Below are positions 26,841-58,119 of a stretch of 64,000 bases of DNA, piece by piece. Position 1 is the first letter of the stretch. Every line of letters begins with the position of its first letter. Under the pieces are notes generated by a model that worked only from the letters and a program-made list of their open reading frames with translations, made no database searches and was not told where the DNA came from. The stretch is from positions 278,566,001 to 278,630,000 of the forward strand of contig CM126204.1 in assembly GCA_052327205.1 (NCBI GenBank), written 5' to 3'. Source of the stretch: Somniosus microcephalus. Its lineage: Eukaryota. The position numbers and the translations under genes are program-made.

Positions 26841-27453
26841 CTACAGTGGTTGGTTTGTCTGTCTGTATGTCCGCTATACACTCAAAAGTTATAGAGCGTA
26901 CCTACACATATGTTATATCAAAAGAAAGCTGATGATCAGGGGAGTGTCATAGGCATATTTACTTTTTGGTCAGACAAAAATTGTTCGGACAGTATACAAA
27001 AATGTTCAAAAATCCGCTCCTACTGCTCATTAGCATTGAGTGACGTGATGGTTGACCAATCCTACGGGGTGTGCGGGGTCTAATCATTCAAACTGCCGTT
27101 AGTGCGGGAGCGGGAGCTGAGCGGCGGCCATTAAACACCTGCTGGGCCTCAAGCTAAAAAAATGGTAATGGGGATTAAATGATATGAAATATAGATTTCC
27201 AGCAAAAAAAAAAGTTGGTTTTAAAAGAAAAAAACATCCATTTGCAAAGGGGACTCGGGCTTTCCCCCCCCTCGGTGGTGGATGAGCTGCCTGCAGGCCT
27301 CGAAGCCTCAGCCTCTCCTCGCCAGCCACGCCCGAGCTAGGCACCGCCCGTCCCGCTGGGCCCGATTCCAAACCAGCGGCCCGCGATCGCCGCCATCTTG
27401 ATAAAGGCTGGCAGGGCGGAGCCAAGCGTAGCCATCACCGCTCTGAGGAAATC

Positions 27454-30400
27454 GGAGAGACAGGGGGAGGGAGAGGAGAGGAGGGGGGGGGGAGAGGAGA
27501 GGAGGGGGGAGAGAGGGAGAGGAGAGGAGGGGGGAGAGAGGGAGAGGAGAGGAGGGGGGGAGAGAGGGAGAGGAGAGGGAGAGGAGGGGGGAGCGGGAGA
27601 GGGAAAGGAGGCGGGGGAGAGGGAAAGGAGGGGGGGANNNNNNNNNNNNNNNNNNNNNNNNNNNNNNNNNNNNNNNNNNNNNNNNNNNNNNNNNNNNNNN
27701 NNNNNNNNNNNNNNNNNNNNNNNNNNNNNNNNNNNNNNNNNNNNNNNNNNNNNNNNNNNNNNNNNNNNNNNNNNNNNNNNNNNNNNNNNNNNNNNNNNNN
27801 NNNNNNNNNNAGAGGGAGAGGAGGGGGGGNNNNNNNNNNNNNNNNNNNNNNNNNNNNNNNNNNNNNNNNNNNNNNNNNNNNNNNNNNNNNNNNNNNNNNN
27901 NNNNNNNNNNNNNNNNNNNNNNNNNNNNNNNNNNNNNNNNNNNNNNNNNNNNNNNNNNNNNNNNNNNNNNNNNNNNNNNNNNNNNNNNNNNNNNNNNNNN
28001 NNNNNNNAGGGGGGAGAGGGAGAGGAGGGGGGAGAGGGAGAGGAGGGGGGAGNNNNNNNNNNNNNNNNNNNNNNNNNNNNNNNNNNNNNNNNNNNNNNNN
28101 NNNNNNNNNNNNNNNNNNNNNNNNNNNNNNNNNNNNNNNNNNNNNNNNNNNNNNNNNNNNNNNNNNNNNNNNNNNNNNNNNNNNNNNNNNNNNNNNNNNN
28201 NNNNNNNNNNNNNNNNNNNNNNNNNNNNNGGAGGGGGGAGAGGGAGAGGAGGGGGGAGAGGGAGAGGAGGGGGGGAGAGGGAGAGGAGGGGGGAGAGGGA
28301 GAGGAGGGGGGGAGAGGGAGAGGAGAGGGGGGAGAGGGAGGGGAGAGGGAGCGGAGGGGGGAGAGGGAGAGGAGGGGGGGAGAGGGAGAGGAGGGGGGAG
28401 AGGGAGAGAAGGCGGGAGAGGGAGAGGAGGGGGGAGAGGGAGAGGAGGGGGGAGAGGGAGAGGAGGGGGGAGAGGGAGAGGAGGGGGGAGAGGGAGAGGA
28501 GGGGGGAGAGGAGAGGAGGGGGGAGAGGGAGAGGAGGGGGGANNNNNNNNNNNNNNNNNNNNNNNNNNNNNNNNNNNNNNNNNNNNNNNNNNNNNNNNNN
28601 NNNNNNNNNNNNNNNNNNNNNNNNNNNNNNNNNNNNNNNNNNNNNNNNNNNNNNNNNNNNNNNNNNNNNNNNNNNNNNNNNNNNNNNNNNNNNNNNNNNN
28701 NNNNNNNNNNNNNNNNNNNNNGGGAGAGGAGGGGGGGAGAGGGAGAGGAGGGGGAGAGGGAGAGGAGGGGGGAGAGGCAGAGGAGGGGGAGAGGAGGGGG
28801 GAGAGGGAGAGGGAGAGGAGAGGAGGGGGGGAGAGGGAGAGGAGAGGAGGGGGGAGAGGGAGAGGAGAGGGGGGAGAGGGAGAGGAGGGGGGGAGAGGGA
28901 GAGGAGGGGGGGGAGAGGGAGAGGAGAGGAGGGGGAGAGGGAGAGGAGAGGAGGGGGAGAGGGAGAGGAGAGGAGAGGAGGGGGGAGAGGGAGAGGAGGG
29001 GGGAGAGGGAGAGGAGGGGGGAGAGGGAGAGGAGGGGGGAGAGGGAGAGGAGAGGAGGGGGGAGAGTGAGAGGAGAGGAGGGGGGAGAGGGAGAGGAGAG
29101 GAGGGGGAGAGGGAGCGGAGAGGAGTGGGGGGGAGAGGGAGAGGAGAGGAGAGGGGGGAGAGGGAGAGGAGAGGAGCGGGGGGAGAGGGAGAGGAGAGGA
29201 GCGGGGGGAGAGGGAGAGGAGAGGAGCGGGGGGAGAGGGAGAGGAGAGGAGCGGGGGGAGAGGGAGAGGAGAGGAGCGGGGGGAGAGGGAGAGGAGAGGA
29301 GCGGGGGGAGAGGGAGAGGAGAGGAGGGGGAGAGAGGGAGAGGAGAGGAGGGGGGAGAGGGAGAGGAGAGGGGGGGGAGAGGGAGAGGAGAGGAGCGGGG
29401 GGAGAGGGAGAGGAGAGGAGCGGGGGAGAGGGAGAGGAGAGGAGCGGGGGGAGAGGGAGAGGAGAGGAGCGGGGGGAGAGGGAGAGGAGAGGAGCGGGGG
29501 GAGAGGGAGAGGAGAGGAGCGGGGGGAGAGGGAGAGGAGAGGAGGGGGGGAGAGGGAGAGGAGAGGAGGGGGGAGAGGGAGAGGAGAGGGGGGGAGAGGG
29601 AGAGGAGAGGAGGGGGGAGAGGGAGAAGAGAGGGGGGGAGAGGGAGAGGAGATAGGGGGGGANNNNNNNNNNNNNNNNNNNNNNNNNNNNNNNNNNNNNN
29701 NNNNNNNNNNNNNNNNNNNNNNNNNNNNNNNNNNNNNNNNNNNNNNNNNNNNNNNNNNNNNNNNNNNNNNNNNNNNNNNNNNNNNNNNNNNNNNNNNNNN
29801 NNNNNNNNNNNNNNNNNNNNNNNNNNNNNNNNNNNNNNNNNNNNNNNNNNNNNNNNNNNNNNNNNNNNNNNNNNGGGAGGGAGAGGAGAGGGAGAGGAGG
29901 GGGGGAGGGAGAGGAGAGGGGGGAGGGAGAGGAGAGGGGGGGATGAGGGAGAGGGGGAGGAGGGAGAGGGGGGGAGGANNNNNNNNNNNNNNNNNNNNNN
30001 NNNNNNNNNNNNNNNNNNNNNNNNNNNNNNNNNNNNNNNNNNNNNNNNNNNNNNNNNNNNNNNNNNNNNNNNNNNNNNNNNNNNNNNNNNNNNNNNNNNN
30101 NNNNNNNNNNNNNNNNNNNNNNNNNNNNNNNNNNNNNNNNNNNNNNNNNNNNNNNNNNNNNNNNNNNNNNNNNNNNNNNNNNNNNNAGAGGGGCGAGGAG
30201 GGAGAGGGGCGAGGAGGNNNNNNNNNNNNNNNNNNNNNNNNNNNNNNNNNNNNNNNNNNNNNNNNNNNNNNNNNNNNNNNNNNNNNNNNNNNNNNNNNNN
30301 NNNNNNNNNNNNNNNNNNNNNNNNNNNNNNNNNNNNNNNNNNNNNNNNNNNNNNNNNNNNNNNNNNNNNNNNNNNNNNNNNNNNNNNNNNNNNNNNNNNN

Positions 30401-30626
30401 NNNNNNNNNNNNNNNNNGGAGAGGAGAGGCGGGGAGGAGGGAGAGGAGAGGGGGGGAGGAGGGAGANNNNNNNNNNNNNNNNNNNNNNNNNNNNNNNNNN
30501 NNNNNNNNNNNNNNNNNNNNNNNNNNNNNNNNNNNNNNNNNNNNNNNNNNNNNNNNNNNNNNNNNNNNNNNNNNNNNNNNNNNNNNNNNNNNNNNNNNNN
30601 NGAGGAGGGAGAGGAGAGGGGGGGAG
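27454..30626. repeat. Polypurine GA-rich low-complexity/minisatellite tract with multiple assembly gaps
   Basis: Almost pure G/A on plus; recurring 18-24 nt units such as GGGGGAGAGGGAGAGGAGAGGAGC; several N runs. Confidence 0.95.
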
Positions 30627-33292
30627 TGTGGTAAACCACTTTTATCGTTACACTATAGTTATCACTGTTGTATTGTTATCACCGTTATCACTGTTGTATC
30701 ACGATACGAGGTCGCCTCTTGTCGCGCTGTTATACCTGGGCTGACCACCTCCGACTCCGCCCATGGCTCCACCTACCTGCCCAGGTATAAAGGTAGTCGA
30801 CTGGCTGGTATTCCTCCTTGTTGGACCCGATCACCCACGAGGGTGGGCTCTGTTATTTAGTCAATAAAAACCTTTAGTTACGTTCCTAACTCGTCGCTTT
30901 TTATTGGACGAATTGATAGGTATATCAATTTTATTGACTAAATTTTAAAGATGTCTACTACTGGCCAGCCAGAAGCCCTCCCAGAAGCACAGCCACACCA
31001 GCCGGCTTGGCTGCAAGCCCTCAAACCACCGTACCTGGATCTAAACCCACAGGCAGCAAACGCAGCCCTCAACTTCAAACACTGGCTGGACTGCTTCGAA
31101 TCCTACCTGGAAGAATCCGGCGCCCCGCAGAGATCCAAACTAAGACTTCTGAACGCCCAAGCGAGCCCGAGAGTATACGCACTCATACAGGACACGACTA
31201 CGTACGAGGCCGCTATCAACCTACTGAAACAGCAGTACCGCAGCCCGGTAAATTACATGTACACCAGGCACCTCCTAAGATCCCGCCCGCAACAGCCAGG
31301 AGAGTCTGTAGCTGAATTTTTACGGGCGCTAAGAGCACTCGGCAGGAACTGTGACTTTAAAGCGGTGACGGCTGTTGAAAATACGGAAGATAATATCCGC
31401 GATGCCTTTGTGAAAGGCCTACGGTCCGACTACTCACGGCAAAGACTGCTTGAAGCTAAAGACCTCGACCTGGACAAAGCTGAAGCCCTCGCTCTCTCCC
31501 TGGAGGTGGCCCATCAGGACCAGGAGGCGTTTTCCAGGTACTGCTCGCGACCCTGGGACTCGGGCCCGACCCCTACCGCAATACCCTTCGCAGCGCCGCC
31601 CCCGGGACCTACCTCAGCGTCGGCGTCCCGGACCCGACCGGGCCCGCCACCCCCGGTACCGGCTCCGACATCGGGCACCCGCGATCGGGCCGCCGGCTGC
31701 TTCTTTTGCGGCCAGGAGAAGCACCCGAGGTCGCGCTGCCCAGCCAGGAACTCTACCTGCACAACCTGCAGGAAGAAAGGCCACTTCTCTAAGGCCTGCA
31801 GGAGCGGATCTTCAGAGGCCAGCAGTGCCTCATGCGAACTGTGGGGGCGGCCATCTTCTTTCACGGCAACTGAGGCCAGTATCCCCACACGTGAGTCATG
31901 GGGGCGGCCATCTTTGATCAAGGCAACCGACCCCAATAGTGCCTCATGTGAGTTATGGGGGCAGCCATCTTCTCCGCCATTTTGTCCTACCTCGTGGGAG
32001 ACGCCATTTTACCCACCACGCCCGACTGCCACCGGGCCCCCGGACCCGACGACCGCCTCGCCCGCAGACGACAACGACTCGCTTACCTACACGCTAGCCT
32101 CCGTCACTCTGGATCAAGCCCGCCCACACCACCTGTCCAAGTCGATGATGGACATCAAAGTAAACGGCCACGCCATGACCTGCCTGTTCGACAGCGGAAG
32201 CACGGAGCTTCATCCACCCAGACACGGTGAGCCACTACTCCCTCCCTGTCCTGCCAACGCGCAACCGAATCTCGATGGCATCGAGGTCCCACGCCACGGA
32301 CATTAGCGGCTACTGTGCTGTGACCTTGTCGGTTAAGGGTACAGAGTATAAAAACTTTAAACTCCTCGTCCTCCCCCAGCTCTGCGCTGCCGTCCTACTA
32401 GGGCTGGACTTCCAATCCCACCTCCAAAGTGTAACCCTAGCATACGGTGGACCCCTCCCCCCACTCACAGTCGACAACCAGCGAAGGTTAAACCGCCCAC
32501 CGCGTAACACCTGCAGCCTATCCACCCTCAAGGTGCCGCCACCTTCCCTGTTCGCTAACCTCACCCCCGACTGCAAACCCGTCGCTACCAAGAGCAGGCG
32601 GTACAGCGCTGGGGACAGAGCTTTCATTAGCTCTGAGGTGCAGCGTCTCCTGAAGGAGGGCATCATCAACAGCCCCTGGCGTGCCCAGGTCGTGGTCGTT
32701 AAGACCGGCGATAAAAATCGCCTGGTCATCGACTACAGCCAGACCATAAACAGATACACCCAGCTGGACGCATACCCCCTTCCCCGCATATCTGACATGG
32801 TCAATCAGATTGCACAATACCGCGTATTCTCGACCATCGACCTTAAGTCGGCCTACCACCAACTCCCTATCCACCCCGAGGACCGCCAGTACACCGCCTT
32901 CGAGGCGAATGGGCGCCTATACCACTTCCTTAGGGTCCCCTTCGGTGTCACCAACGGGGTCTCGGTCTTCCAAAGGGAGATGGACCGGATGGTTGACCAG
33001 AACGGACTGCAGGCCACATTCCCCTACCTAGATAACGTCACCATCTGCGGCCGCGACCGGCAGGACCACGACGTGAATCTGGAGAAATTCCTCCGTACAG
33101 CCCAACGGCTGAACCTCACCTACAATAAGGAGAAATGTGTGTTTAACACCTCGCGCCTTGCCATCCTTGGCTGTGTAGTAGAGAACGGACTCATCGGCCC
33201 CGACCCCGAAAGAATGCGCCCCCTCATGGAGCTACCCCTCCCCCACTGCCCTAAGGCACTTAAGAGAACCCTGGGGCTCTTCGCCTACTATG
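30627..33292 (+). mobile_element. Ty3/Gypsy LTR retrotransposon D (5'LTR 30627-30927, gag-pro-RT), cut by an assembly gap
   Basis: TG..CA LTR with TATAAA (30786) and AATAAA (30863). Gag with CCHC-type knuckles (CFFCGQEKHPRSRC, CTTCRKKGHFSKAC); protease DSGS; RT motifs IDLKSAYHQ, PFGV, YLDN. Confidence 0.9.
30951..32306 (+). CDS. Gypsy D gag and protease N-terminus (frameshift near 32205 just after DSGSTE)
   Basis: 451-aa ORF from ATG 30951 with zinc knuckles. Pol continues in the 32227 frame up to the gap at 33293. Confidence 0.8.
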   Translation: MSTTGQPEALPEAQPHQPAWLQALKPPYLDLNPQAANAALNFKHWLDCFESYLEESGAPQRSKLRLLNAQASPRVYALIQDTTTYEAAINLLKQQYRSPVNYMYTRHLLRSRPQQPGESVAEFLRALRALGRNCDFKAVTAVENTEDNIRDAFVKGLRSDYSRQRLLEAKDLDLDKAEALALSLEVAHQDQEAFSRYCSRPWDSGPTPTAIPFAAPPPGPTSASASRTRPGPPPPVPAPTSGTRDRAAGCFFCGQEKHPRSRCPARNSTCTTCRKKGHFSKACRSGSSEASSASCELWGRPSSFTATEASIPTRESWGRPSLIKATDPNSASCELWGQPSSPPFCPTSWETPFYPPRPTATGPPDPTTASPADDNDSLTYTLASVTLDQARPHHLSKSMMDIKVNGHAMTCLFDSGSTELHPPRHGEPLLPPCPANAQPNLDGIEVPRHGH

Positions 33293-33792
33293 NNNNNNNN
33301 NNNNNNNNNNNNNNNNNNNNNNNNNNNNNNNNNNNNNNNNNNNNNNNNNNNNNNNNNNNNNNNNNNNNNNNNNNNNNNNNNNNNNNNNNNNNNNNNNNNN
33401 NNNNNNNNNNNNNNNNNNNNNNNNNNNNNNNNNNNNNNNNNNNNNNNNNNNNNNNNNNNNNNNNNNNNNNNNNNNNNNNNNNNNNNNNNNNNNNNNNNNN
33501 NNNNNNNNNNNNNNNNNNNNNNNNNNNNNNNNNNNNNNNNNNNNNNNNNNNNNNNNNNNNNNNNNNNNNNNNNNNNNNNNNNNNNNNNNNNNNNNNNNNN
33601 NNNNNNNNNNNNNNNNNNNNNNNNNNNNNNNNNNNNNNNNNNNNNNNNNNNNNNNNNNNNNNNNNNNNNNNNNNNNNNNNNNNNNNNNNNNNNNNNNNNN
33701 NNNNNNNNNNNNNNNNNNNNNNNNNNNNNNNNNNNNNNNNNNNNNNNNNNNNNNNNNNNNNNNNNNNNNNNNNNNNNNNNNNNNNNNNNNNN

Positions 33793-34848: not shown

Positions 34849-37667
34849 TAAGACATCTTGTATCACTACACTCTCACTTCTAACATTTTAAATTAATCCA
34901 CCTTAATGCCGCTCTCTTTTACTTTCCAAATAATTAAATGAGTTTGGTTTTCTTACAGATTCTAACAGCTAGAATGGTTTGTTGTCAGCACTCAATTTTT
35001 GATAATAGTCATGAAGGCCTTTTTGATTAATTTAGGGTCCCTTATATTCCCTTATTAACCAAATTAGATAAAGCAAGCATTTCTGGTCCCCTTTCAAAGT
35101 GTTTTTTAAAAATCTGTTTCAATTTAAATTCCACAACATAAATAGTCAATAACATCACATCCAATCAAGAGCCTGTGGCTTCTGTTGTTCCCCAAGGCTG
35201 TGTAGTGAAATCTACTTTTACTGCTATGGATTTGCGATTTAAAGCATTAAAAAAAAAATCTCACAAGATGGAAATGCGTGCGAAGTCATAATATAACCTT
35301 TCACATATAATGCCAGTTTCTCAGACCATATTTCCTCCAGTTTTGTACTAACCCAGTCCATGGCATGTCTTATTTGAAATCTCTGAAGAACAAGTTCGAA
35401 TCATCTACATATAATTATCAATTACTAACATGCCAACTTTCAGCCTGATGTTAAGGTTTGCATTAGCACTCTTCCATTGAGGGAGACTTCGATTTTAAGT
35501 TACAGGGAAATGATAATATAGACATCAGTGAAACACATGAGATAGCTCAAGGTTGATAAATAATTCACTTAAAAATTCGTCTTCAATCCTACTGTTCCAA
35601 ATGTAGGTCCTTTTATCCCTACCATCCTTTAATGATGCTCACTTATCTGCATCCTCATCAACAGATCATTTCAGAAATTAACCTGAAAGATTAAACTGGG
35701 CCTGGATTATTTCCTGCAGGTCTGTCTGGTCTGTAAACAACTTGCCTCGATTGTAATAAATCCATTCTGCATCAGTGCATAGATACAAAATGCATCAGTA
35801 GAGATATGGACACATCCTCTAACAGTGTATCTCTCTGCACCCTAAGAGATCTTACATTACCAGTAATTCTTCTCTTCCTCCCTTTTCTTAAGCTTATTAC
35901 TGGCATTTTCCTTCTGCAATCCTGCACTGTGATGGAATTGCCTACCCGGCTTTAGTGCAGATTCAAACACGCTCTCAAAATTCAAATTTATTTACTTTCC
36001 CAGGATAACAAAAAATATCCACTTTCCTGTTATCTCACTCTAAATTTACTGATTTCCAAAAGTTTTGTTACAATACTATGCAAACGCCATCTTCATCGTA
36101 ATCTTAGGCATTCACTTACAGCAACATCACATTTTCCACACTCCTATTAAGACATGTTATTGATTACTGTCCATTGTATTGTAATGATGGGTACTGTAAA
36201 GCAGCCATTTTATCAAGGTTCTTCCAAAGGCTGTGTTTTTATGCAATGCCTATTCAACTCTAAAGGTCACCCTGGACAGCATCACTTTCCTTCTGGTCAC
36301 TGATGCTGCACTGAAAGTTCATTAAAATAAGCAGACAGAAAATAGTACAGCAAAATGTGTCCTGCTGATTTTATACGGTAGCCAATTATTTCATTTCCCT
36401 CGGCATAAAGGACATCACTTGGTCCATGTTCAAATACGGAGGCATATACAAACGGCATAACGCCTTGGCAGAATACCCGCAGCGGCGACAGTGCCGTCAT
36501 ACGTGCGATATTTCCATTCTTGAACAAACCCCCACCCCCCTCAGCTTCCAGCCCAGCTCTATTAGTGTTACTGAGTCCCCCTGTGTGAACAGTGAACCCG
36601 GCGTGATATTGCAGCCTGCTAACTCCGCCAGTCACTGGAAATTTCCACTTCTCCAGAATATCAAGCTCGTCATATAATAAGTATTCAAGAAAGCCAGTCT
36701 GCGTCTGAGCCACTGCGATTGCTCCCAGTGAGTCGGTGCTCTCCTGAAGTCCCACCGCCGAGATTTACAAATAATTGCCACCCAGCCGCTCCCCTACTTG
36801 TATTAAATTCTGCCCACATCTCCCTCGTTAGGTACAAGGGCTAAAACCGCTCGTCATCAAAATACCACAATCTAGTATTTTTAAAAAAAAATGGCCCATC
36901 CTTCCATCATACGTCCAACAAAAAAAGCCCCCGCACCGTCTCCTGGTTCTTTCCGATCGAGATACAAACCGAGAGCAATGCCTGTCCTTTCCCCATCTCA
37001 CTGGTCAGCCAGGTGCTGAAAGACGCACTCTGTTCATTTCTAATAAAAGATCACAGTAAAAGTACCAGAGCAAATTACAGCCCAGCCTCTATTCAGGCAA
37101 AAATATATATAAACAATCAAGTTTGCAGGTCGTCCACCGAACTATTCGGCAACAACAGTTTGTACAGGACACTGACCGCGGCCCCGTCCAATCCGGCACC
37201 TTTACTCATTTCACAGCGCTTGGGGCATCGGGCGATCCGACTGCTCCCGAAATAATCCAATTAAACTAAAGATGAAATTGAACCTACAAACATCGAACTT
37301 TTACTATAACACATACTGTAAAATGACACAAAGAGCGCGGCAAATAAATCCAACCTTCGTCTATTTTTAACAATCGCAAGTAAATTCGCACAAATAAAAT
37401 GATTGAAATGGAAAAATGTGTGAAGCATTACAAAAAAAATTCTGCATAAAACTGACACGTGGATGGTGCTGCTCTTCCCTGTTTACCGTCGAGATCGATA
37501 TATATTCTCCCGGGGCGTCAACAGTATCACAGTGACGTTTGGCAACACTACAAATAGCAGAGGGATGTTAATATTTTTTCACCCTCCTTTGTAAATGTTA
37601 CAATGCTGAAGTTGGCTTGTTACAGTCGGAGAAAAGTGGGTCGAGCCAGTGTTGGCCGCCCGTGTGT

Positions 37668-37693
37668 TTCAGCACCACCCGCCTTGGACAGCG
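37668..37693 (+). promoter_or_regulatory. Non-canonical (split) REST/NRSF RE1 site
   Basis: TTCAGCACC (37668-37676) + 9-nt spacer + GGACAGCG (37686-37693); the canonical spacer is 2 nt. Confidence 0.6.
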
Positions 37694-37900
37694 AACAAAG
37701 GAAAGGAGCCGAGCTTGGGGAACTAACTGTTTCCAAATAACTCCCCTTCGCCCTTTATTTAAAGGCGATTTCTTCAGACCCAGGCTTTTTTCAATCAATC
37801 AATTCACGAATTCATCCACCCAGAGCGACGTTTAGGGACAAACTCGTCTTAAAACGAAACACCAGCACCGGCAGGAAATGAGGAGCCTCTAAATTCTTAC

Positions 37901-37985
37901 CGAACATCTGAATGTGCCCTTTAGTGATGGGGTTGAAGCTCCCGCAGGCTAGCAGGATAACGTGTGTTTTAGTCGGCTCTGCCAT
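37901..37985 (-). CDS. NMNAT2: Nicotinamide mononucleotide adenylyltransferase 2, first coding exon (85 nt, phase 1)
   Basis: Minus strand CAGC-ATG-G.. translates [28 protein letters not shown]-(G). This matches the human NMNAT2 N-terminus as I recall it ([29 protein letters not shown]), including the GSFNPIT..H nucleotidyltransferase motif. Followed by the donor GTAAG (37900-37896). Confidence 0.97.
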
Positions 37986-38382
37986 GCTGCCCAGCTGCCC
38001 TCTGCTCCTCGCTGGCTTTCTCCCCTTCTCTGCAATGCGAGGCGAGGCTGGCTTCGGACCGTTTTACAGCCTCGGATGTCTCGCTGCTCACACACAGTGC
38101 GTCACCCATTGATTATTTTTTTGTTTTTTTTGTTTAGTGTCCCCGTTTGCCTCCAGCGTTTGGCGAGCCGCTATTGAGATTTCGATCGCCCGCAGCCACG
38201 GGTTTTAGCCGCAGGTTGGCTGAAGCATCTAAACGCTGTGATCAGATACTCGCTGCTTTGATTTGAGGGCGTTTTTGCTGTGAAATGTATCAACACATAG
38301 TTGTCTACCCAAAAAGAGCAGAGTTGGGTGAGTTTTTCCCCCACCACCTCGACTAATCTTCGGTCGGGAGCCGCTGGCTGCT

Positions 38383-38460
38383 CTGGGATTTGTATTTCGC
38401 CTGAGTCAGATTTCCCTCCACTACCGTCTGTGAGGAACTACAAATCCCAGATCCCATTGG
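38383..38460. promoter_or_regulatory. Inverted pair of ACTACA-NN-CCCAG (ZNF143/THAP11-type) motifs flanking an AP-1 site, plus a CCAAT box
   Basis: CTGGGATTTGTATTTC (38383-38398), TGAGTCA (38402-38408), GAACTACAAATCCCAG (38435-38450), ATTGG (38456-38460); about 400 bp upstream of the NMNAT2 ATG. Confidence 0.7.
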
Positions 38461-38727
38461 TGCGAGTCTACATTGAAGTGAAACGTTCAACAATAAAATA
38501 TTGAAATTGCAAGAACGGAAATGACCAAGACGCGAATTGAAAACTTGTGTGTGGGCGTAATGTGCTGTTTATAGTAACGCGTTCCTTTTTTGATAGTTAC
38601 TGTGGGTTGTCATGTTATTGACGTGTCTCCCCACCTGGGTTCTTTTTCCAAAGATCAACCTTCCACAATTGTGTGGCGTACTCCATAGTTTCAATGTCCT
38701 GGTCGTTGTGAATAACCTGCACACATG

Positions 38728-39744: not shown

Positions 39745-42700
39745 TGTAGTGTCCGTGTGTTGATAAAGACACTGAAGACAGGAGTTGGTTCATAGGTATT
39801 TACTAAGCAAAGTCGGGGGGTGTTCTAAAGGATATACACAATACACAGGCTTATATAGCCCAAGTGGCAATTACCGGCATTACGCACACCTGGGGCTCGT
39901 AAAGGCACATACACCACAATTCCTCCCCTTTTAGCTAACCAGTACATCATATTTTAAGTAATTATTAATTACATGTTATATGCAAAATAATATACATTGC
40001 TGTAATTAATTAATTATAAGTTAGTCTCTCAGGAGGCTTCCTGACTCAGTCCAGATAACGCCTCGGGGGTGTAGTAGTTTCTGGTGGTGTAGTAGGTTCT
40101 TCTGGCAAGGCTGATTCGGCTTGAATGTCAGCGTCGGGTTCCAGTATCACCGGATTGGAGGTAGATATGGGTATCTCTACTTCATTGTTAGATGTATAGA
40201 GTGGTGGTGTAGGTTGTCCCTTTTCGGATGACTTTATGATTTGGTCAGCATGGCGCCTTATTATGCTTTCTCCGATGTCCACGGTATACATCAGTGGTCC
40301 TAGTCGTGTGCAGATGGTTCCAGGCTGCCATTTCTCGGTACGGTAGTCCCAGGCCAAAACCTGTTGGCCTATCTGGAAGGCCCTAGTTGGCCTTTCATTC
40401 ATGCCTTGAAACTGCCGGTTCTCCACGTCCCTTCTGATGTTGGGCTTGACCAAATCCAGCCGGCATCTTAGGTTTCTATTGAAGAACATCATGGCGGGAG
40501 TTTGGTTGGTAACCATATGTGTTGCATTCCTGTATGCGAATAAGAAGTTATCCACCTTGTGCTGAAGTTTTATGTCTTCATTACCCATGGCCTTTATGGC
40601 CTTCTTGAGGGTCTGGACAAACCTTTCAGCCAATCCATTGGTGGCGGGATGGTATGGGGCGGACGTGTAGTGCTTTACCCCATTGTTTTTTAAGAACTTT
40701 CTGAATTCTTCGGACACAAATTGCGGTCCATTATCAGAACATATCTGTTCCGGCAGCCCATTCCTGGCAAATATGGTCCTTAATACTGTGATGGTTTTTT
40801 CCGTGGTGGTGGAGGACATCTTTATTACCTCCGGCCACTTGGAGTGTGCATCAACCGCGATTAAGAACATTGAGTCCATAAATGGACCAGCAAAGTCGAT
40901 GTGCACCCTTTGCCAGGGAGATGAGGGCCACTCCCATGGATGTAGAGAGGCTTGTGGTGGAGCGTTTTGGACCTTCTGGCATCCTAGGCAGCTCTTGGTC
41001 ATTTCTTCGATGTCTCCATCGATACCTGGCCACCATACAAACGCCCTGGCTAGGTTCTTCATTTTCACTCCACCCAGATGCCCCTCGTGAAGCTCCTTTA
41101 GCACTTTATCCTGGAGTTTGGGTGGAATCACCACTCTGGATCCACACATCAAGGTTCCTCGGCACACTGACAGCTGTTCTCTTCTTTGCGAGAATGCTGG
41201 CAACAGTGGTTCGCCATGTGCTGGCCATCCCTTCACTGTTAAATCGTAGACCCGTGAGAGAGTCGGGTCATTTCTTGTCTCCCTTTCAATGGCAGAATTT
41301 GTCACTGGTAGACATTCCACTATGGTAGAGTGGAATATCTCTACTGGGTCTACTGTAGGTGCCTCTTCTATCGTTGGCAACGGTAGGCGCGATAAACCAT
41401 CAGCATTCCCATGCTGTTTTGACCCTTTGTATTCTATGTTGTATTGGTGTGCCCCTAGAAAAAGGGACCACCGCTGTAGCCTTTGTGCTGTCATAATGGG
41501 AACACCCTTTTTAGGGTTGAATATGGAGATGAGGGGTTGATGTTCAGTCAACAAGGTAAATTTTTGTCCGTGTAGGTAATGGTTGAATTTCTTTACTCCC
41601 AATACCAGGCTGAGTGCTTCCCTGTCGATCTGGGCATAGTTACGCTCAGCTGAGTTCAATGAGCGTGACGCAAAAGCTATCGGCCGTTCTGAGCCATCAG
41701 GGAATTTATGAGATAATACTGCTCCTATGCTGTAAGGGGATGCATCGCACGCCAGTCTGATTGGCAGTGATGGGTTGTAATGAGCCAAAACTTCTTTGGA
41801 TGTGATTAAGTCTTTGCATTTACGGAAGGCATTTTTGCAGTTTTTGTTCCATTTCCAAATTACTCCTGTTTGTAGCAGTTCACTAAGAGGGTGTAGAAGA
41901 GTTGATAAGTTCGGTAAAAATTTATGATAGTAATTTATTAATCCCAGGAACGACCTTAATTGTGAAACATTTTCAGGTGCTGGGGCTTTTATGACCGCCT
42001 CAATTTTCTCAGGTGACTTATGCAACCCTTCCTTATTTATTATGTGGCCACAATATGATATTTGATTTCGGAAAAATTCGCACTTGGGGCGAGTTGCTCG
42101 TAGGCCCCGTTCTCTCAGCCTAGTGAGCACCTGCTCTAAATTGGCAAGGTGCTCATTGTCGTTTTCTCCTGTTACAAGGATGTCGTCTAGGTAGCATGGA
42201 GTCCCCGGAATCCCTTGGAGGACTTGCTCCATAGCTCTTTGCCAGATAGCTGGAGCGGATGCTACTCCGAAAACCAATCGATTGTACTGGTACAGACCTT
42301 TGTGTGTATTTATCGTGAGATATTTTTTAGAGGCCTCTTCAACCTCCATCTGTAGATATGCCTGTGCCAAGTCAATTTTGGTGAAACGTTTCCCTCCGGA
42401 TAGTGAGGCGAAAATATCTTCTATCCTCGGAAGAGGATACTGTACCGTGTGAAGGACCGGGTTTACAGTCACCTTGAAGTCTCCACAGATGCGAATTTTT
42501 CTCTGTTCTTCAGATCCATCACCCTTCAATGCTTTCTTCATGACTGGGATGATGGGTGTTGCCCACTCGCTCCAATCTATTTTAGATAATACGCCTGCCT
42601 TTTCCAAATTCTCCAGCTCTGCCTCGACTGCTGGACGAATTGCGTATGGCACCGGTCTTGCCTTAAAAACTTGGGAATTGCTACATCTTCTACATTTATT

Positions 42701-44527
42701 GAGGCGGTGATGCCTTTCAAGGTTCCTAGTTTCTCTTGAAATACTTCCTTGGCGTTGGCCAAGATGTCTTTCAATCGTTCAGGTATGACGTCATCATCAT
42801 TTTTTTCCTTACTGGTCACCGTCAGTGCCTGAATGGAGTGCCAGTCTAAACGTATTTTTCTGATCCATTCACGTCCCAACAGCGGTGGACCACCATCTTG
42901 TAGAACATATAAATACAACTTTTGTATTTCCTTGCCGTTGTATACAACAGGCACCCTTATTTTTCCTTTGGGGTATACTTTCTGCCCCGTATATGTTTTC
43001 AAGATAATGGATGTATCTTTTAAAGGTATATGCAGAAATAGCCGCTCGTAATCCCGTCGATTTATGACGGTCAGAGCTGATCCTGTATCTAGCTCCATTT
43101 TAACTGGGGACCCTGCTATTGTGAGGGTAACCCAAATGGTCTGGTAATCTTCTTTGGCAATTACATTATGTAATTTGAGAGAGCTTAGTCTCTTGTTCCC
43201 GGAGTCGCTATCGCTCTTCTGGTCTTCAGAGCTACTGTCCGTCATCATTTGTACCTTTCTGTGATTTTCCTTATTGATTCTTTTCTCGTTAGTGGATTTT
43301 TTATTTTCAGATCGGCGCACACGTGGAATGTGTCCCATCTTTCCGCATCGCCTGCATGCTTTTTCCTTGAACCAGCAGTCCCTCTGGTCATGGGTGGATC
43401 GGCCGCAGCGATAACATCTCTCGAAACCCCGTGTCATTTCATGGGTGTCGAAGTCCTGTGGCCTTTGCTGTATCTTTGCAGCTCCTATTGCACTGAAAGC
43501 CTTGTCCAGTGTTAAATCTTTTTCAGAAGATACCTTTTTTTTGTGTTTCTACACTTAGGGGATCGCAGATGAATTTGTCTCGCAGAGAATCTGCCAGTCC
43601 TGCCTCGAATTGGCAGTGTAGGGTATCAACAATCTCCTCAAAATTCTTGTCCATCGGTTCGGCTGGAGTGATTAAGTTTCGTAACAGCTTGTATGTCTTT
43701 GCGCCCATTAGATCCAGAAGCACTGAAGCTTTTTTTTCATCTTCTATTCCATTTGCGGTGCAATATACCTCCACTCTTTCCACATATGTGGTCCAATCCT
43801 CTATCTTGTTATCAAAAACATTAATATTGCCAAAATTAGGCTCTGTTTCGCTATCAAAAGCATCAATATTACCAGACTTAGGCATTTCAGAAAAGATATG
43901 GCGCTTCCCGCCCTTTTTTTTTTCTCTTTTCTGTAGCAAGATATGGCGCTTCCCGCCGCTGCTGCCGATAACAACGCTGTTTACTGCTGTTCCCGTTCTC
44001 TTTATGTTTTTTAAAAATTTACTGTTGGAGACTCGTTCTCGCCGGAGGTCTGAACGCTGATCTGCTTGCTGCGCCGGCCGTCTCCCGAGTGCTCCCTCCC
44101 AGTCCGTTATTGCTTGCCTCCGATTTCGCTGCCTGTCTCAGCTGTAGAGCCCGCCGCTGGAGCCCCAGCCTGACGCCCAGGAAGGATTAGCGCAGTACCT
44201 GCCACCAGCTTGGCCAGCTGGTGAAACCACAGCTTCTTTCACTTCCTTGAGTCTTCTGGACGCCCGAGGAATCGATGTCCTTGAGGTGCTGCCGAATTGC
44301 CGGTAAGTCCGTTTCCACTTCGTCGCCACTGTAGTGTCCGTGTGTTGATAAAGACACTGAAGACAGGCGTTGGTTCATAGGTATTTACTAAGCAAAGTCT
44401 GCGGGGGGGGGGGGGGGGGGGGGGGGGGGGTTTCTAAAGGATATACACAATACACAGGCTTATATAGCCCAAGTGGCAATTACCGGCATTACGCACACCT
44501 GGGGCTCTTAAAGGCACATACACCACA
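39745..44527 (-). mobile_element. Ty3/Gypsy LTR retrotransposon A (full length, decayed gag)
   Basis: LTRs 39745-39918 and 44330-44527; GAAAC TSD; PBS TGGCGACGA (tRNA-Ser(GCT)-like); PPT AAAAGGGGAGGAAT. RT-RNaseH-integrase ORF 40046-42652 (YLDD; HHCC region; DDE: HIDFAG, SDNGP, AER). Confidence 0.97.
40046..42652 (-). CDS. Gypsy A pol (RT, RNase H, integrase), frameshifted from the upstream gag-protease
   Basis: 868-aa open frame with RT, RNase H (DAS..IAFASR) and integrase motifs; protease DTGS in 42577-43437. Confidence 0.9.
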   Translation of the reverse strand: MPYAIRPAVEAELENLEKAGVLSKIDWSEWATPIIPVMKKALKGDGSEEQRKIRICGDFKVTVNPVLHTVQYPLPRIEDIFASLSGGKRFTKIDLAQAYLQMEVEEASKKYLTINTHKGLYQYNRLVFGVASAPAIWQRAMEQVLQGIPGTPCYLDDILVTGENDNEHLANLEQVLTRLRERGLRATRPKCEFFRNQISYCGHIINKEGLHKSPEKIEAVIKAPAPENVSQLRSFLGLINYYHKFLPNLSTLLHPLSELLQTGVIWKWNKNCKNAFRKCKDLITSKEVLAHYNPSLPIRLACDASPYSIGAVLSHKFPDGSERPIAFASRSLNSAERNYAQIDREALSLVLGVKKFNHYLHGQKFTLLTEHQPLISIFNPKKGVPIMTAQRLQRWSLFLGAHQYNIEYKGSKQHGNADGLSRLPLPTIEEAPTVDPVEIFHSTIVECLPVTNSAIERETRNDPTLSRVYDLTVKGWPAHGEPLLPAFSQRREQLSVCRGTLMCGSRVVIPPKLQDKVLKELHEGHLGGVKMKNLARAFVWWPGIDGDIEEMTKSCLGCQKVQNAPPQASLHPWEWPSSPWQRVHIDFAGPFMDSMFLIAVDAHSKWPEVIKMSSTTTEKTITVLRTIFARNGLPEQICSDNGPQFVSEEFRKFLKNNGVKHYTSAPYHPATNGLAERFVQTLKKAIKAMGNEDIKLQHKVDNFLFAYRNATHMVTNQTPAMMFFNRNLRCRLDLVKPNIRRDVENRQFQGMNERPTRAFQIGQQVLAWDYRTEKWQPGTICTRLGPLMYTVDIGESIIRRHADQIIKSSEKGQPTPPLYTSNNEVEIPISTSNPVILEPDADIQAESALPEEPTTPPETTTPPRRYLD

Positions 44528-51243: not shown

Positions 51244-53210
51244 CTGAAACCACAGATCCCCGTTGCTCACCACCGCCCCATCACACCTTCCCTCTGTCAC
51301 AGAACATCACCGCATCCCCCTGAGCACAAAGCTGAAATGAGAGCCACCACAAAACACACATTCGAAACATAATTTATAAATTTATCAAATTCAAATCAAA
51401 AGAACAAAGTCAACTAATCACCCTTATGCATTCCCTTAGTGTCTGTCTTTCGTCTGCCTTTTCCGACTCTAGTGCTCCTATGAAGTGCTCCCCCAGTGGC
51501 TGCAGCATGGCTGGTGGAAGACTGCTGACTTTCAGTGTGGGTGACTAAAGATGGCCTTGCAGGACAACTTCTAGCAGCTTTGGACCGAGAAGGCCGGCTG
51601 TAGACTCGACATAGGCTCCAGCAGCCTGGGCTAGCTGGATGACAGGCAGCAGCAAGGGCACTGGTGGAATGGCAGTGATGAGAGTAGGAATGCTGTCATC
51701 CTGAGGGAGGACAGCAGGTTCTTGCTCCACAGAGCCACTGCCACTCATCTGGGGCAGTGCATCAGCATTCCTAGCAATCTGTTGAAGCACGGTTTGCTGG
51801 CCTGCTGCGACACCCTGCAGCCCCTTTTGACACTCTACCCAGCAATGATGGCAGCAGTCTGACCTTGGGTGGCTTCAAGCTGAGACTGCAGGAGAGCAGT
51901 CTGCGCTTCCACTGCAGCACTGAGACATTGGGTCGCTTCCGCCTGTGCTGCAATGCATGCTGCGAGATCGCCCATCACACCAGCATCATCTTTGGGTTCA
52001 CAAGTTCTCTCATGGAGTTGCCCATCATTTCCATCCTGGAACTCATGGGCTCCAAGCTCTGCACAAAACCCTATGAAATGTTGGAGTGGATTGCTCCATG
52101 CTCCTTGATACTGACAAACGGCTCCTTGGCAGGCTTGCCATTGCACCTAGAATTTCCGTGTGCATGCCCATCACCCTTCTTCTGAAGGTGCCCCATCGAG
52201 GTCATCATCTGAGACCTGTGGAGCAGAACTTTTGCACAAACTCACCCTCTGAGGAGCTGGCGCCCAAGCTACCCTTTCTCACTGGCCTGGCTGCAGCCCA
52301 TTTGTGCCCGGTGACTCACTACGTGCAGATCCCGCCTCTATAATACCCTCTAAAGTACGCGCAGTGTCATTTTCTGAGCTGGTGTCTGCGAGTGTCAGAT
52401 GCAGTGATGGTGTGTCGTCTTCTCCTCCATCAGTCTCTTCCACAACTTCAGGGACAGGCTGGCCAGGTTGCAATTCTGAAATCAGAAAAGGCACAAGGGT
52501 CAGGTTGTGGAGAGGGGAGGGGGGGAAAGCAAGATATCCATGCATACACCATCAGCAGCTGGTAAGTGAGAAGAGATTGTGGGATCACAGGAAAGTGGGA
52601 TGTGAGAAGAAGGATTAGGTATGAGCATACCATCATCATCAGCAATGCTTTCCACTTCTCCGCTCACCACAGACTCTGTCATAATCATAACAGCCCCTCC
52701 AATGATGTCCAGCACTGCTTCCTCCAAGTCAGTCAGGTTGTCAAGCATTGTTTGGCCACCTCCCATCTGCTGTTGCTGTCTCCGGTTGTGTGCCACCGTG
52801 GCCTGCAAGAGAGAGGAAACTGTGTCAGTGACTGTGGAGTAATGTGTTTGGGTGATGTGCCTGTCATGGTTGAATAGCTGGCAGTGTGTGCAAGGTGTGA
52901 GATGTGGGTGTGAGGCTTGCAGCAATGGTAAGTCTGTGAGGGTGAGGTGAAGCTATGATTGTGAGGTATGAGTGGTGATTGATATTGATTGTTGGTAGGT
53001 GAGTGATGGGGGTATGGTGCACTGAGCAGTGTGTGAGGCTTGTGGTGCTTGTTGTGTCAGTACCTTTCTACCTAGACACAATTTAGGACTCAGAACTCAG
53101 AGATTCAAACATGAAGTGCTTTATTGGAAGGAAAGGAGGTTCTGGAAAGTTCCGAACAAAGAGAGCTAAACTTAACAGAGAACACCCAACCATTTATCTG
53201 CTGTGACACC

Positions 53211-56200
53211 TGTGGTGTATGTGCCTTTAAGAGCAATTATGGTGTATGTGCCTTTAAGAGCCCCAGGTGTGCGTAATGCCGGTAATTGCCACTTGGGCTA
53301 TATAAGCCTGTGTATTGTGTATATCCTTTAGAAACCCCCCCCCCAGACTTGCTTAGTAAATACCTATGAACCAACTCCTGTCTTCAGTGTCTTTATCTAC
53401 ACACGGACACTACAGTGGCGACGAAGTGGAAACGGACTTACCTGCAATTCGGCAGCACCTCAAGGACATCGATTCCTCCAGCGTCCAGAAGACTCAAGGA
53501 AGTAAGAGAAACTGTGGTTTCACCAGCTGGCCAAGCTGGTGACAGGTACTGCGCTAATCCTTCCTGGGCGTCAGGCTGGAGCTCCAGCGGCAGGCTCTAC
53601 AGCCGAGACAGGCAGCGAAATCGGAGGCAAGCAATAACGGACTGGGAGGGTGCACTCGAGAGACGGCCGGCGCGGCAAGCAGGTCACCGTTTAGACCTCC
53701 GGCGGGAACGAGTCTCCAACAGCGAATAAATGGAAACCACAGTAAAACAGCGTTGTTATCGGTAGCAGCGGCGGGAAAGCGCGGGAAGCGCCATATCGTT
53801 GCTACAGAGAGAAAAAAAAAAGTGCGGGAAGCGCCATATCTTTTCTGAAATGCCTAAATCTGGTAATATTGAGGCTTTTGATGGTGAAATAGAAGATTGG
53901 ACCACATACGTGGAAAGAGTAGAGGTTTATTGCACTGCAAATGGAATAACAGATGAAAAAAAAGCTTCAGTACTTCTGAACTTAATGGGCGCGAAGACAT
54001 ACGGGCTGTTACGAAATTTAATCACTCCAGCCAAACCAAAGGACAACACTTTTAAAGAAATTGTTGATACCCTGCAGGAGCATTTAAACCCAACACCGCT
54101 GCTGATAGCGGAACGATTCAAGTTCTTCAAGATAAATCAACACAAGAATGAAAGTAACGCTGATTACCTAAACGAATTAAGAAAGCTATCAAAGTATTGC
54201 CAATTCGGAGCAGGACTATTGGATTATCTTCGAGACAAATTTGTTTGCGGTCTCTTAAGTGAAGGAACACAAAAAAGACTGCTTTCTGAAAAAGATTTAA
54301 CATTGGACAAAGCTTTCAGTATGGCTGTATCATACGAAGCAGCAGCAAAAGGAGCTGCAGAGATACAACAAGAGACACAGGACTTCGGCACCCATAAAAT
54401 GACACAGGAGTTCGGAAGATGTTATCGCTGCGGCAGATCCACCCATAACCAGAGGGACTGCTGGTTCAAGGGCAAAGCATGCAGGCAATGTGGTAAGATT
54501 GGACACATTGCACGGGTATGCCAATCTGGACAAAATAAATCCACTGACAGAAAACAAAAAATCAATAAAGAAAAGTACAGGAAGGTAAAAATGATGACGG
54601 ACAATAGCTCCGAAGACCAGAATAACGATAGCGACTCCGGAAACAAGAGACTAAGCTGTCTCAAATTACATAATGTATTTGCCAAAGAGGATTACCAAAC
54701 CATTTGGGTTACCCTCACAATAGCAGGGTCCCCAGTTAAAATGGAGCTAGATACAGGATCAGCTCTAACCGTAATAAATCGACGAGATTACGAGAGGCTA
54801 TTTTCGCATATACCTCTAAAAGACACATCCATTATCTTAAAAACATATACGGGGCAGAAAGTCTACCCCAAAGGAAAAATAAGGGTGCCTGTGGTATACA
54901 ACGGCAAAGAAATACAAAAGTTGTATTTATACATTCTACAAGATGGTGGTCCACCGTTGTTGGGACGTGAATGGATAAGGAAGATACGTTTAGACTGGCA
55001 CTCCATTCAGGCACTGACGGTAAGGAAAAAAACAATGATGACATCATACCTGAACGATTAAAAGACATCTTGGCCAACGCCAAAGAAGTGTTTCAAGAGA
55101 AACTAGGAACCTTGAAAGGCATCACCGCCTCAATAAAAGTGGAAGATACAGCAATTCCAAAATTTTTTAAGGCAAGACCGGTGCCATACGCAATATGTCC
55201 GGCAGTCGAGGCAGAGCTGAAGAATTTGGAGAAGGCAGGCGTATTATCCAAAATAGATTGGAGCGAATGGGCAACACCCATCGTTCCAGTCATGAAAAAA
55301 ACATTGAAAAATAACTCTGAGGAACAGAAAAAAATTCGCATCTGTGGGGACTTTAAGGTGACTGTAAACCCGGTCCTTCACACGGTACAGTATCCTCTGA
55401 GGATAGAAGATATTTTCGCCTCACTATCCGGAGGGAAACGTTTCACAAAAATTGACTTGGCACAGGCATATCTACAGATGGAGGTTGAGGAGACCTCTAA
55501 AAAGTATCTCACAATAAACACACACAAAGGCCTGTACCAGTACAATCGACTGGTTTTTGGAATAGCATCAGCTCCAGCTATCTGGCAAAGAGCTATGGAG
55601 CAAGTCCTGCAAGGGATTCCGGGGACTCAATGCTACCTAGACGACATCCTTATAACAGGAGAAAACGACAACGAGCACCTTGCCAATTTGGAGCAGGTGC
55701 TCACTAGGCTGAAAGAACGGGGCCTACGAGCAAATCGCCCCAAGTGCGAATTTTTCCAAAATCAGATATCATATTGTGGCCACATAATTAATAAGGAAGG
55801 GTTGCATAAGTCACCTGAAAAAATTGAAGCAGTTATAAAAGCCCCAGCACCTGAAAATGTTTCACAATTAAGGTAATTCCTGGGATTAATAAATTACTAT
55901 CATAAATTTTTACCGAACTTATCAACTATTCTACACCCTCTTAATGATCTTCTATAGACAGGAGTGATTTGGAAATGGAACGAAGACTGTAAACGTGCCT
56001 TCCATAAATGTAAAGACTTAATCACATCCGAGAAAATTTTGGCTCATTACAACCCATCACTACCAATCAGACTGGCGTGCGATGCATCCCCTTACGGCAT
56101 AGGAGCGGTATTGTCCCATAGATTCCCTGATGGCTCGGAACGGCCGATAGCTTTTGCGTCACGCTCATTGAACTCAGCTGAGCGTAACTATGCCCAGATA

Positions 56201-58119
56201 GACAGGGAAGCACTCAGCCTGGTATGGGGAGTGAAGAAATTCAACCATTACCTACACGGACAAAAATTTACCTTGCTGACTGACCATCAACCCCTCATCT
56301 CCATATTCAACCCTAAAAAAGGTGTCCCCATTATGACGGCACAAAGACTACAGAGGTGGTCCCTTTTTCTAGGGAAACACCAATACAACATTGAATACAA
56401 AGGGTCAAAACAGCATGGGAATGCTGACGGTTTATCACGCCTACCGTTGCCAACAATAGAAGAGGCACCTACAGTAGACCCAGTAGAGATATTCCACTCT
56501 ACCATAGTGGAATGTCTACCGGTGACAAATTCTGCCATTGAAAGGGAGACAAGAAATGACCCTACTCTCTCACGAGTCTACGATTTAACAGTGAAGGGAT
56601 GGCCAGCACATGGCGAACCACTGTTGCCAGCATTCTCGCAAAGAAGAGAACAGCTGTCAGTGTGCCGAGGAACCTTGATGTGTGGATCCAGAGTGGTGAT
56701 TCCACCCAAACTCCAGGATAAAGTGCTAAAGGAGCTTCACGAGGGGCATCTGGGTGGAGTGAAAATGAAGAACCTAGCTAGGGCGTTTGTATGGTGGCCA
56801 GGTATCGATGGAGACATCGAAGACATGACCAAGAGCTGCCTAGGATGCCAGAAGGTCCAAAATGCTCCGCCACAGGCCCCTCTACATCCATGGGAGTGGC
56901 CCTCATCTCCCTGGCAAAGGATGCACATCGACTTTGCTGGTCCATTTATGGACTCAATGTTCTTAATCGCAGTTGATGCACACTCCAAGTGGCCGGAGGT
57001 AATAAAGATGTCCTCCACCACCACGGAAAAAACCATCACAGTATTAAGGACCATATTTGCCAGGAATGGGCTGCCGGAGCAGATATGTTCTGATAATGGA
57101 CCGCAATTTGTGTCCGAAGAATTCAGAAAGTTCTTAAAGAACAATGGGGTAAAGCACTACACGTCCGCCCCATACCATCCCGCCACCAATGGATTGGCTG
57201 AAAGGTTTGTCCAGACCTTCAAGAAGGCCATCAAGGCCATGGGTAATGAAGACATAAAACTTCAGCACAAGGTGGATAACTTCTTATTTGCCTATAAGAA
57301 TGCAACACATATGGTTACTAACCAAACTCCCGCCATGATGTTCTACAATAGAAACCTAAGATGCCGGCTGGATTTGGTCAAGCCCAACATCCGAAGGGAC
57401 GTGGAGAACCGGCAGTTTCAGGGCATGAATGAAAGGCCAACTAGGGCCTTCCAGATAGGCCAACCGGTTTTGGCCCGGGACTACCGTACCGAGAAATGGC
57501 AGCCTGGAACTATCTGCACACGATTAGGACCACTGATGTATACCGTGGACATCGGAGACAGCATAATAAGGCGCCATGCTGACCAAATCATCAAGTCATC
57601 CGAAAAGGGACAACCTACACCACCACTCTATACATCTAACGATGAAGTAGAGATACCCATATCTTCCTCCGATCCGGTGATACTGGAGCCCGATGAACCC
57701 GACACTGGCCTTCAAGCCGAATCAGCCTTGCCAGAAGAACCTACTACACCACCAGAAACTACTACACCCCCGAGGCGTTATCCGGACCGAGTCAGGAAGC
57801 CTCCTGAGAGACTAACTTATAATTAATTAATACAGCAATGTATATTATTTTGCATATAACATGTAATTAATAATTACTTAAAATATGATGCACTAGTTAG
57901 CTAGAAGGGGAGGAATTGTGGTGTATGTGCCTTTAAGAGCAATTATGGTGTATGTGCCTTTAAGAGCCCCAGGTGTGCGTAATGCCGGTAATTGCCACTT
58001 GGGCTATATAAGCCTGTGTATTGTGTATATCCTTTAGAAACCCCCCCCCAGACTTGCTTAGTAAATACCTATGAACCAACTCCTGTCTTCAGTGTCTTTA
58101 TCTACACACGGACACTACA
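53211..58119 (+). mobile_element. Ty3/Gypsy LTR retrotransposon B (same family as A), inserted in the 3'LTR of C
   Basis: ACACC TSD (53206-53210, 58120-58124); LTRs 53211-53414 and 57917-58119; PBS TGGCGACGA; PPT AGAAGGGGAGGAAT. gag-pro 53799-55061, RT 54971-55876, RNaseH-IN 55964-57826. Confidence 0.97.

Follow-up and report, generated by a model that had tools for sequence, protein, structure and literature searches.

A recently amplified Ty3/Gypsy family of Somniosus microcephalus with asparagine at the second YxDD position of a probably functional reverse transcriptase

The window analyzed here, a 64,000-nucleotide stretch of contig CM126204.1 from Somniosus microcephalus, holds the 5' part of a Ty3/Gypsy retrotransposon: a long terminal repeat (LTR), a gag region that runs into protease, and a reverse transcriptase (RT) domain (Table 1). 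The codons TAC CTA GAT AAC in the RT frame encode YLDN, and this RT therefore departs from the three-aspartate pattern, in which YxDD carries both aspartates. The translated gag shows two C-x2-C-x4-H-x4-C knuckles, and a Pfam search of the gag region returned no match. The element stops at a run of N, and its RNase H, integrase and 3' LTR are absent from the window. This copy is not intact: it is truncated, a frameshift interrupts it, and its RT has in addition an in-frame gap of 9 nt near 32667. Between the zinc knuckles and protease (31830-31990) lie three or four short, imperfect repeats; RNA reads show joints at these repeats, and the length of the frame differs among copies.

Table 1. Features of the YLDN element in the window
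Feature	Position	Strand	Evidence
5' LTR, 301 bp, TG...CA	30627..30927	+	matches both LTRs of 20 fetched copies at 96-100%
TATA-like box, putative function	30786..30791	+	sequence
LTR stretch with AATAAA, exact complement of primer-site sequence	30855..30869	+	15-nt exact complement; co-varying subfamily letters
Primer-binding-site position, candidate self-priming site, complementary to own LTR	30929..30943	+	sequence
gag, two CCHC knuckles, runs into protease; end approximate	30951..32180	+	translation
2-nt gap, frame shift in protease of window copy	32205 (near)	+	sequence comparison
RT domain	32578..33291	+	Pfam RVT_1 E 2e-23; best PDB match Ty3 RT 4OL8 by sequence and fold
Motif-A catalytic Asp, Ty3 D151 equivalent, intact	32839..32841	+	alignment to Ty3 RT
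YLDN motif: Ty3 D213-equivalent Asp intact (33031-33033), Asn at Ty3 D214 position	33025..33036	+	alignment
500 N	33293..33792	.	then LINE sequence

The YLDN copy adjoins the end of a long GA-rich tandem array (27286-30626), and three of 20 fetched copies (L032, L033, L034) also lie inside G-rich tandem repeats, a setting that may reflect either site preference or just the abundance of such repeats. Further along are two related YLDD Gypsy copies (40005-44525 and 53211-58049), 96% alike and inverted relative to each other; the second lies nested within a third element, in which the two LTR halves (53048-53210 and 62376-62538) are identical. A CpG-rich, non-repeat stretch at 36300-38500 looks like a gene start or exon region and contains a minus-strand frame of 155 codons (36297-36764).

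A sequence-only reading of the window had placed YLDN in an open, CpG-rich RT frame and had given YLDD for the three other Gypsy RTs. The motif and its codons are confirmed, and the three other RTs do read YLDD, though they are only 27-29% identical to this one. CpG richness also stands, with an observed/expected ratio of 0.82 in the YLDN RT vs 0.50-0.70 in the other three and 0.38 in the adjacent LINE; the copy, however, is not intact, with its gaps near 32205 and 32667 and its stop at the run of N.

Aligned to the YLDD of Ty3, the asparagine falls at D214, the second aspartate of the motif, and the other two catalytic aspartates are intact. Ty3 RT is the best match by sequence (E 2.6e-31) and by fold (E 2.9e-17, PDB 4OL8), the fold being that predicted by an AlphaFold model of the RT (pLDDT 82), a model that speaks to the fold only. 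In the excerpted text of one study the three aspartates are regarded as invariant in all reverse transcriptases (PMC2148107). The same excerpts bear out the earlier statement that the equivalent change in Ty1, D211N, keeps polymerase activity and blocks transposition; kpol also falls 223-fold, and suppressors in RNase H bring back 5-10% of transposition (PMC2148107). For Ty3, the accessible part of a second study reports that D151 and D213 are required for metal binding, and that D214N keeps polymerase activity at lower processivity and is lethal for transposition (PMC5371799).

Since D-to-N blocks transposition in both yeast elements, compensating changes should be expected, and the scans turned up none. 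Across independent pairs no column of the RT changed along with Asp or Asn (only seven pairs, hence low power), and none stood out in a scan of RNase H and integrase for a residue co-varying in this way. Both other RT aspartates are kept in 236 of 245 Asn-type homologs vs 94 of 96 Asp-type homologs, and the acidic residues of RNase H and integrase are retained equally in the two types. Columns diagnostic of the clade described below lie in finger and palm, at query positions 35-37, 54-57, 109-110, 158 and 165.

The family has at least 29,500 copies in its own genome, and Asn is fixed among them. Counts over the 6.45 Gb searched are exact pattern matches, which are lower bounds of copy number and unbiased at the codon in question. 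The exact 32-nt context occurs genome-wide 1,553 times with an Asn codon and once with any codon not starting with A (a Tyr codon); Asp occurs in none. A looser pattern that spans subfamilies gives 29,535 Asn, 49 Asp and 48 Ser, the Ser count serving as a control for a single A-to-G change, and 3 of the 49 Asp matches are, judged by their letters, members of a separate Asp family. Both AAC and AAT occur under the looser pattern, and third positions around the codon vary. In a protein search of the same genome all 150 scored matches were identical over 112 residues, a weak gauge of fixation because such a search favours look-alikes. The sequence-only reading had reasoned from the condition that YLDN is fixed in the family and had allowed that most copies might instead read YLDD; the counts decide for fixation, by 29,535 to 49.

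Twenty copies, chosen for similarity and long open frames, all read YLDN. They are 4.6-kb elements with LTRs of about 300 bp and a single frame of 1,271-1,328 codons; target duplications of 5 bp are perfect in 18, and the LTR pairs are identical in nine, figures that overstate the youth of the family because the copies were picked in this way. Between the window RT and Asn subfamilies dN/dS is 0.036-0.114 in 11 comparisons, a 12th being saturated; selection on the RT is purifying. RNA reads cover the element (6,226 and 6,812 in two runs with the same species label as the best DNA holder, not provably of this genome), mostly in the orientation expected for sense RNA. Among the variants listed there is no change at 33034-33035, at depths of about 630 and 1,130, and third positions vary widely: the family is transcribed, and its RNA keeps the Asn codon. 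The reads placed no transcript start; the position of the TATA-like box suggests an earlier one.

YxDN reaches well beyond this family. Among the best homologs, xxDN is found in 90 of the 119 that cover the motif in one set of 120, and in 100 of 120 in another. Named homologs with Asn come from catsharks, rays, cnidarians and a fluke, those with Asp from two spiders, a nematode and a moth. A set of 150 representatives, 148 of them covering the motif, divides into 52 Asn, 93 Asp and 3 other, and all 41 representatives below 40% identity have Asp. Two close homologs, P0131 and P0151, are labelled in NCBI as bacterial metagenome-assembled proteins, probably host DNA in bins. A search of a viral contig set for relatives found none.

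For a tree, 385 rows were reduced to 375 with full cover and Asp or Asn, then to 244 by thinning at 80% identity; 17 rows from the shark's own genome were added and the trait residue was masked. All 149 Asn rows fall within one animal Ty3/Gypsy clade of 237 rows (support 100), which also holds 88 Asp rows, some of them single mutated copies (e.g. L070). The tree counts 30 changes between Asp and Asn, 7 of them on starred branches, vs 84.9 with shuffled labels; many of its inner branches are weak (106 of 258 are open). A subset of 45 rows rejects a single clade for Asn (p-AU 0.027), and its starred branches force only one change. As these trees have it, YxDN is confined to one clade, within which Asp and Asn switch repeatedly, with 7-30 changes. 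Asp is likely the ancestral state, because Asp rows are basal in both trees, and it is likely that Asn was gained once or more and that several returns to Asp followed. The motif had earlier been taken as particular to one family; alignment of copies and relatives (20 of 20 fetched copies and 149 rows of the tree) shows that it is not private, and places it instead as a trait of a large, old clade. A further remark, that the G-to-A change needed does not fall at a CpG G, is true locally and beside the point, because the D-to-N change is ancient.

Both states also occur within the one genome. A sister family, fixed for Asp and with about 60% RT identity, gives 3,190 matches, three of them Asn, and its LTR pairs are 97.5-100% identical (L067-L069, L097-L116). 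Asn matches outnumber those of the sister family about 9 to 1, a ratio between different patterns that are both lower bounds. Against one Asn background of 1,963 matches, 15 Asp copies and 25 sampled Asn copies were placed in a tree: seven of the Asp copies (L137, L140, L141, L142, L147, L148, L149) group together with one of the Asn copies (support 100), and the other eight are scattered. The seven lie on separate contigs and at different target sites. It would appear likely from this grouping that they represent a mobile Asp revertant. No clear marker was found that the seven share and the grouped Asn member lacks, and two patterns aimed at the subgroup failed to isolate it (1,192 and 17 matches).

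We consider it very probable that this is a recently amplified Ty3/Gypsy family in which nearly every copy has Asn at the second YxDD position, and whose RT copies the element with only two catalytic aspartates. Fixation of Asn together with recent amplification makes a naturally working RT with an altered site very likely, as the sequence-only reading had supposed. In such an enzyme the motif-A Asp and the first Asp of the motif would hold the metals, by analogy with Ty3, and Asn may fill the accessory role well enough, through hydrogen bonding near the primer end or the pyrophosphate. Conservation patterns suggest that old, clade-specific finger and palm residues made the site tolerant of either Asp or Asn. 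Lineages would then become fixed for either residue and occasionally switch, with fitness differing little. That no residue tracks the switches, with the low power noted, is consistent with a single compensatory step at the clade's base, for which the diagnostic finger and palm columns would be the candidates.

A less probable account, though one still worth serious attention, is that Asn is itself selected because it tunes the enzyme (slower, or with other fidelity or metal use), so that the switches are adaptive rather than drift. The residue has persisted across synonymous distances that are saturated, Asp and Asn are the only recurrent residues at the site and any others are singletons, and copies that went back to Asp have failed to sweep (49 of about 29,600), all of which such selection would explain. 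Yet the Asp sister family (3,190 matches, LTRs 97.5-100% identical) thrives in the same genome, the seven of 15 Asp copies in the starred group on separate contigs suggest that an Asp revertant has moved, and no co-varying residue is seen. This account is compatible with the two-aspartate reading as to activity and differs from it only on why Asn is kept.

The primer-binding-site position follows directly on the 5' LTR and is exactly complementary to the LTR stretch that holds the poly(A) signal; the complement is 15 nt long, vs a best of 11 nt in 5,000 mononucleotide shuffles. From subfamily to subfamily the paired letters vary together (13 of 20 loci resolved, LTR boundaries being unclear in 7), and they co-vary too in a distant lineage from metagenomes (8 of 12 loci with the start). 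Every Asn element with a resolved 5' end has the self-complementary site, seven Asn-type loci among the 20 and those 8 of the metagenome lineage. So does the YLDD sister family, in 15 of 15 copies with resolved LTRs among 23 examined. The comparison covered loci L067-L086, L097-L116 and L119-L135. A short hairpin with 8-bp arms at 30911-30930 spans the LTR end, within the longer pairing of LTR and primer site. The pairing of the site with its own poly(A) signal may serve self-priming, with masking of the poly(A) signal as a rival or added role.

The sequence-only reading had suggested that Asn is possibly linked to this priming structure, with co-occurrence of the two on an RT phylogeny as a check. 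That Asn serves a self-priming mechanism now looks unlikely. Asn does occur only inside this clade, and every Asn element with a resolved 5' end does have the site; overlap at the level of the clade, however, amounts to one evolutionary event that is indistinguishable from shared ancestry, and the YLDD sister has the same site. Asn is therefore not needed for the primer site, and both are traits of the same clade. By comparison of the loci, the self-complementary primer site is a separate, clade-wide trait, independent of Asn.

It is still less likely that the RT of the Asn elements is dead and that YLDD relatives mobilise them in trans. A YLDD sister family is at hand, with about 60% RT identity, and the yeast mutants, in the accessible parts of both studies, do not transpose (PMC2148107, PMC5371799). 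Against this, dN/dS is near 0.07 across the RT and the other aspartates are retained, Asn matches exceed those of the sister about 9 to 1 (different patterns, lower bounds), and long, purely Asn clades extend across distant hosts. We find it hard to credit that A-to-I editing recodes the Asn codon to Asp in mRNA: a single A-to-G change would suffice, but at 1%, in two RNA runs, no variant at 33034 is among those listed, and edited genomic RNA would give Asp copies, which stand at the level of the Ser control (49 vs 48). A private inactivating mutation or assembly error, which the other lesions of the window copy might have suggested, is refuted by the genome-wide counts (1,553 to 0 and 29,535 to 49, Asn vs Asp) and by the same motif in other species.

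The reading of a working two-aspartate RT can be widened, to a claim that seems to us about equally apt to hold or to fail: that this is an animal-wide clade in which the third aspartate is optional, one that transposes fully with Asn and toggles even within one genome by way of a remodelled finger and palm. Together with a tRNA-free site that pairs with its own poly(A) signal, this would be an undescribed replication design at tens of thousands of copies in a vertebrate genome.

The family belongs to Ty3/Gypsy by its 301-bp TG...CA LTRs, its 5-bp duplications (18 of 20 copies), its pol order of protease, RT, RNase H and integrase (from a full natural copy and homologs), and an RT closest to Ty3-type RTs. 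In a tree built without a named Mag reference, the YLDN clade is separate from the three other Gypsy RTs of the window, at the 27-29% identity given above. Two CCHC knuckles in gag mark the Mag lineage, and the window element has them. The Cigr-1 clade, whose founder is from Ciona intestinalis, comprises short elements with one gag-pol frame and short LTRs. We take it to be the candidate name for the present family, whose 4.6-kb, one-frame copies resemble it and are set beside it by description only. The RNA-dependent RNA polymerases of Mononegavirales and birnaviruses, with GDN or ADN in motif C, also have Asn naturally at this motif position; these, however, are not reverse transcriptases.

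In the accessible portions of two papers the Cigr-1 clade is reported from molluscs and annelids (PMC6238403, PMC8556966), and a supplement files it under Mag (PMC6238403); those portions say nothing on YxDN or on the primer site. A primer site complementary to the element's own LTR is shared with Tf1, Tj1 and sushi, whose primer, according to excerpts of PMC4600332, is the 5' end of the mRNA. In the Tf1/sushi group RNase H sets this primer free. Unlike the Tf1 type, the complement here covers the poly(A) signal and would lie about 40 nt behind the start predicted from the TATA-like box. The literature on YxDD variants that we searched holds no description of a natural YxDN RT; most subscription papers lie outside that search, and older element descriptions or repeat databases may mention YLDN. 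An annotation rule that counts a missing YxDD as a sign of "dead RT" would go wrong on this very large, young family.

The closest parallels are the two yeast mutants. Ty1 D211N is the same substitution at the same motif position (PMC2148107, as excerpted), but Ty1 belongs to Ty1/copia, its transposition is lost, and no equivalent of its RNase H suppressors was found here. Ty3 D214N likewise has Asn at this position and keeps its polymerase, in the accessible text of PMC5371799; Ty3, however, is only about 30% identical, and its D214N is a laboratory mutant unable to transpose, whereas the Asn of the present family occurs naturally and has become fixed in its young copies. Both mutant enzymes, Ty1 D211N and Ty3 D214N, polymerise yet cannot transpose. 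A natural Asn lineage beside Asp sisters in one genome offers matched enzymes with which to ask about the role of the residue and its compensation.
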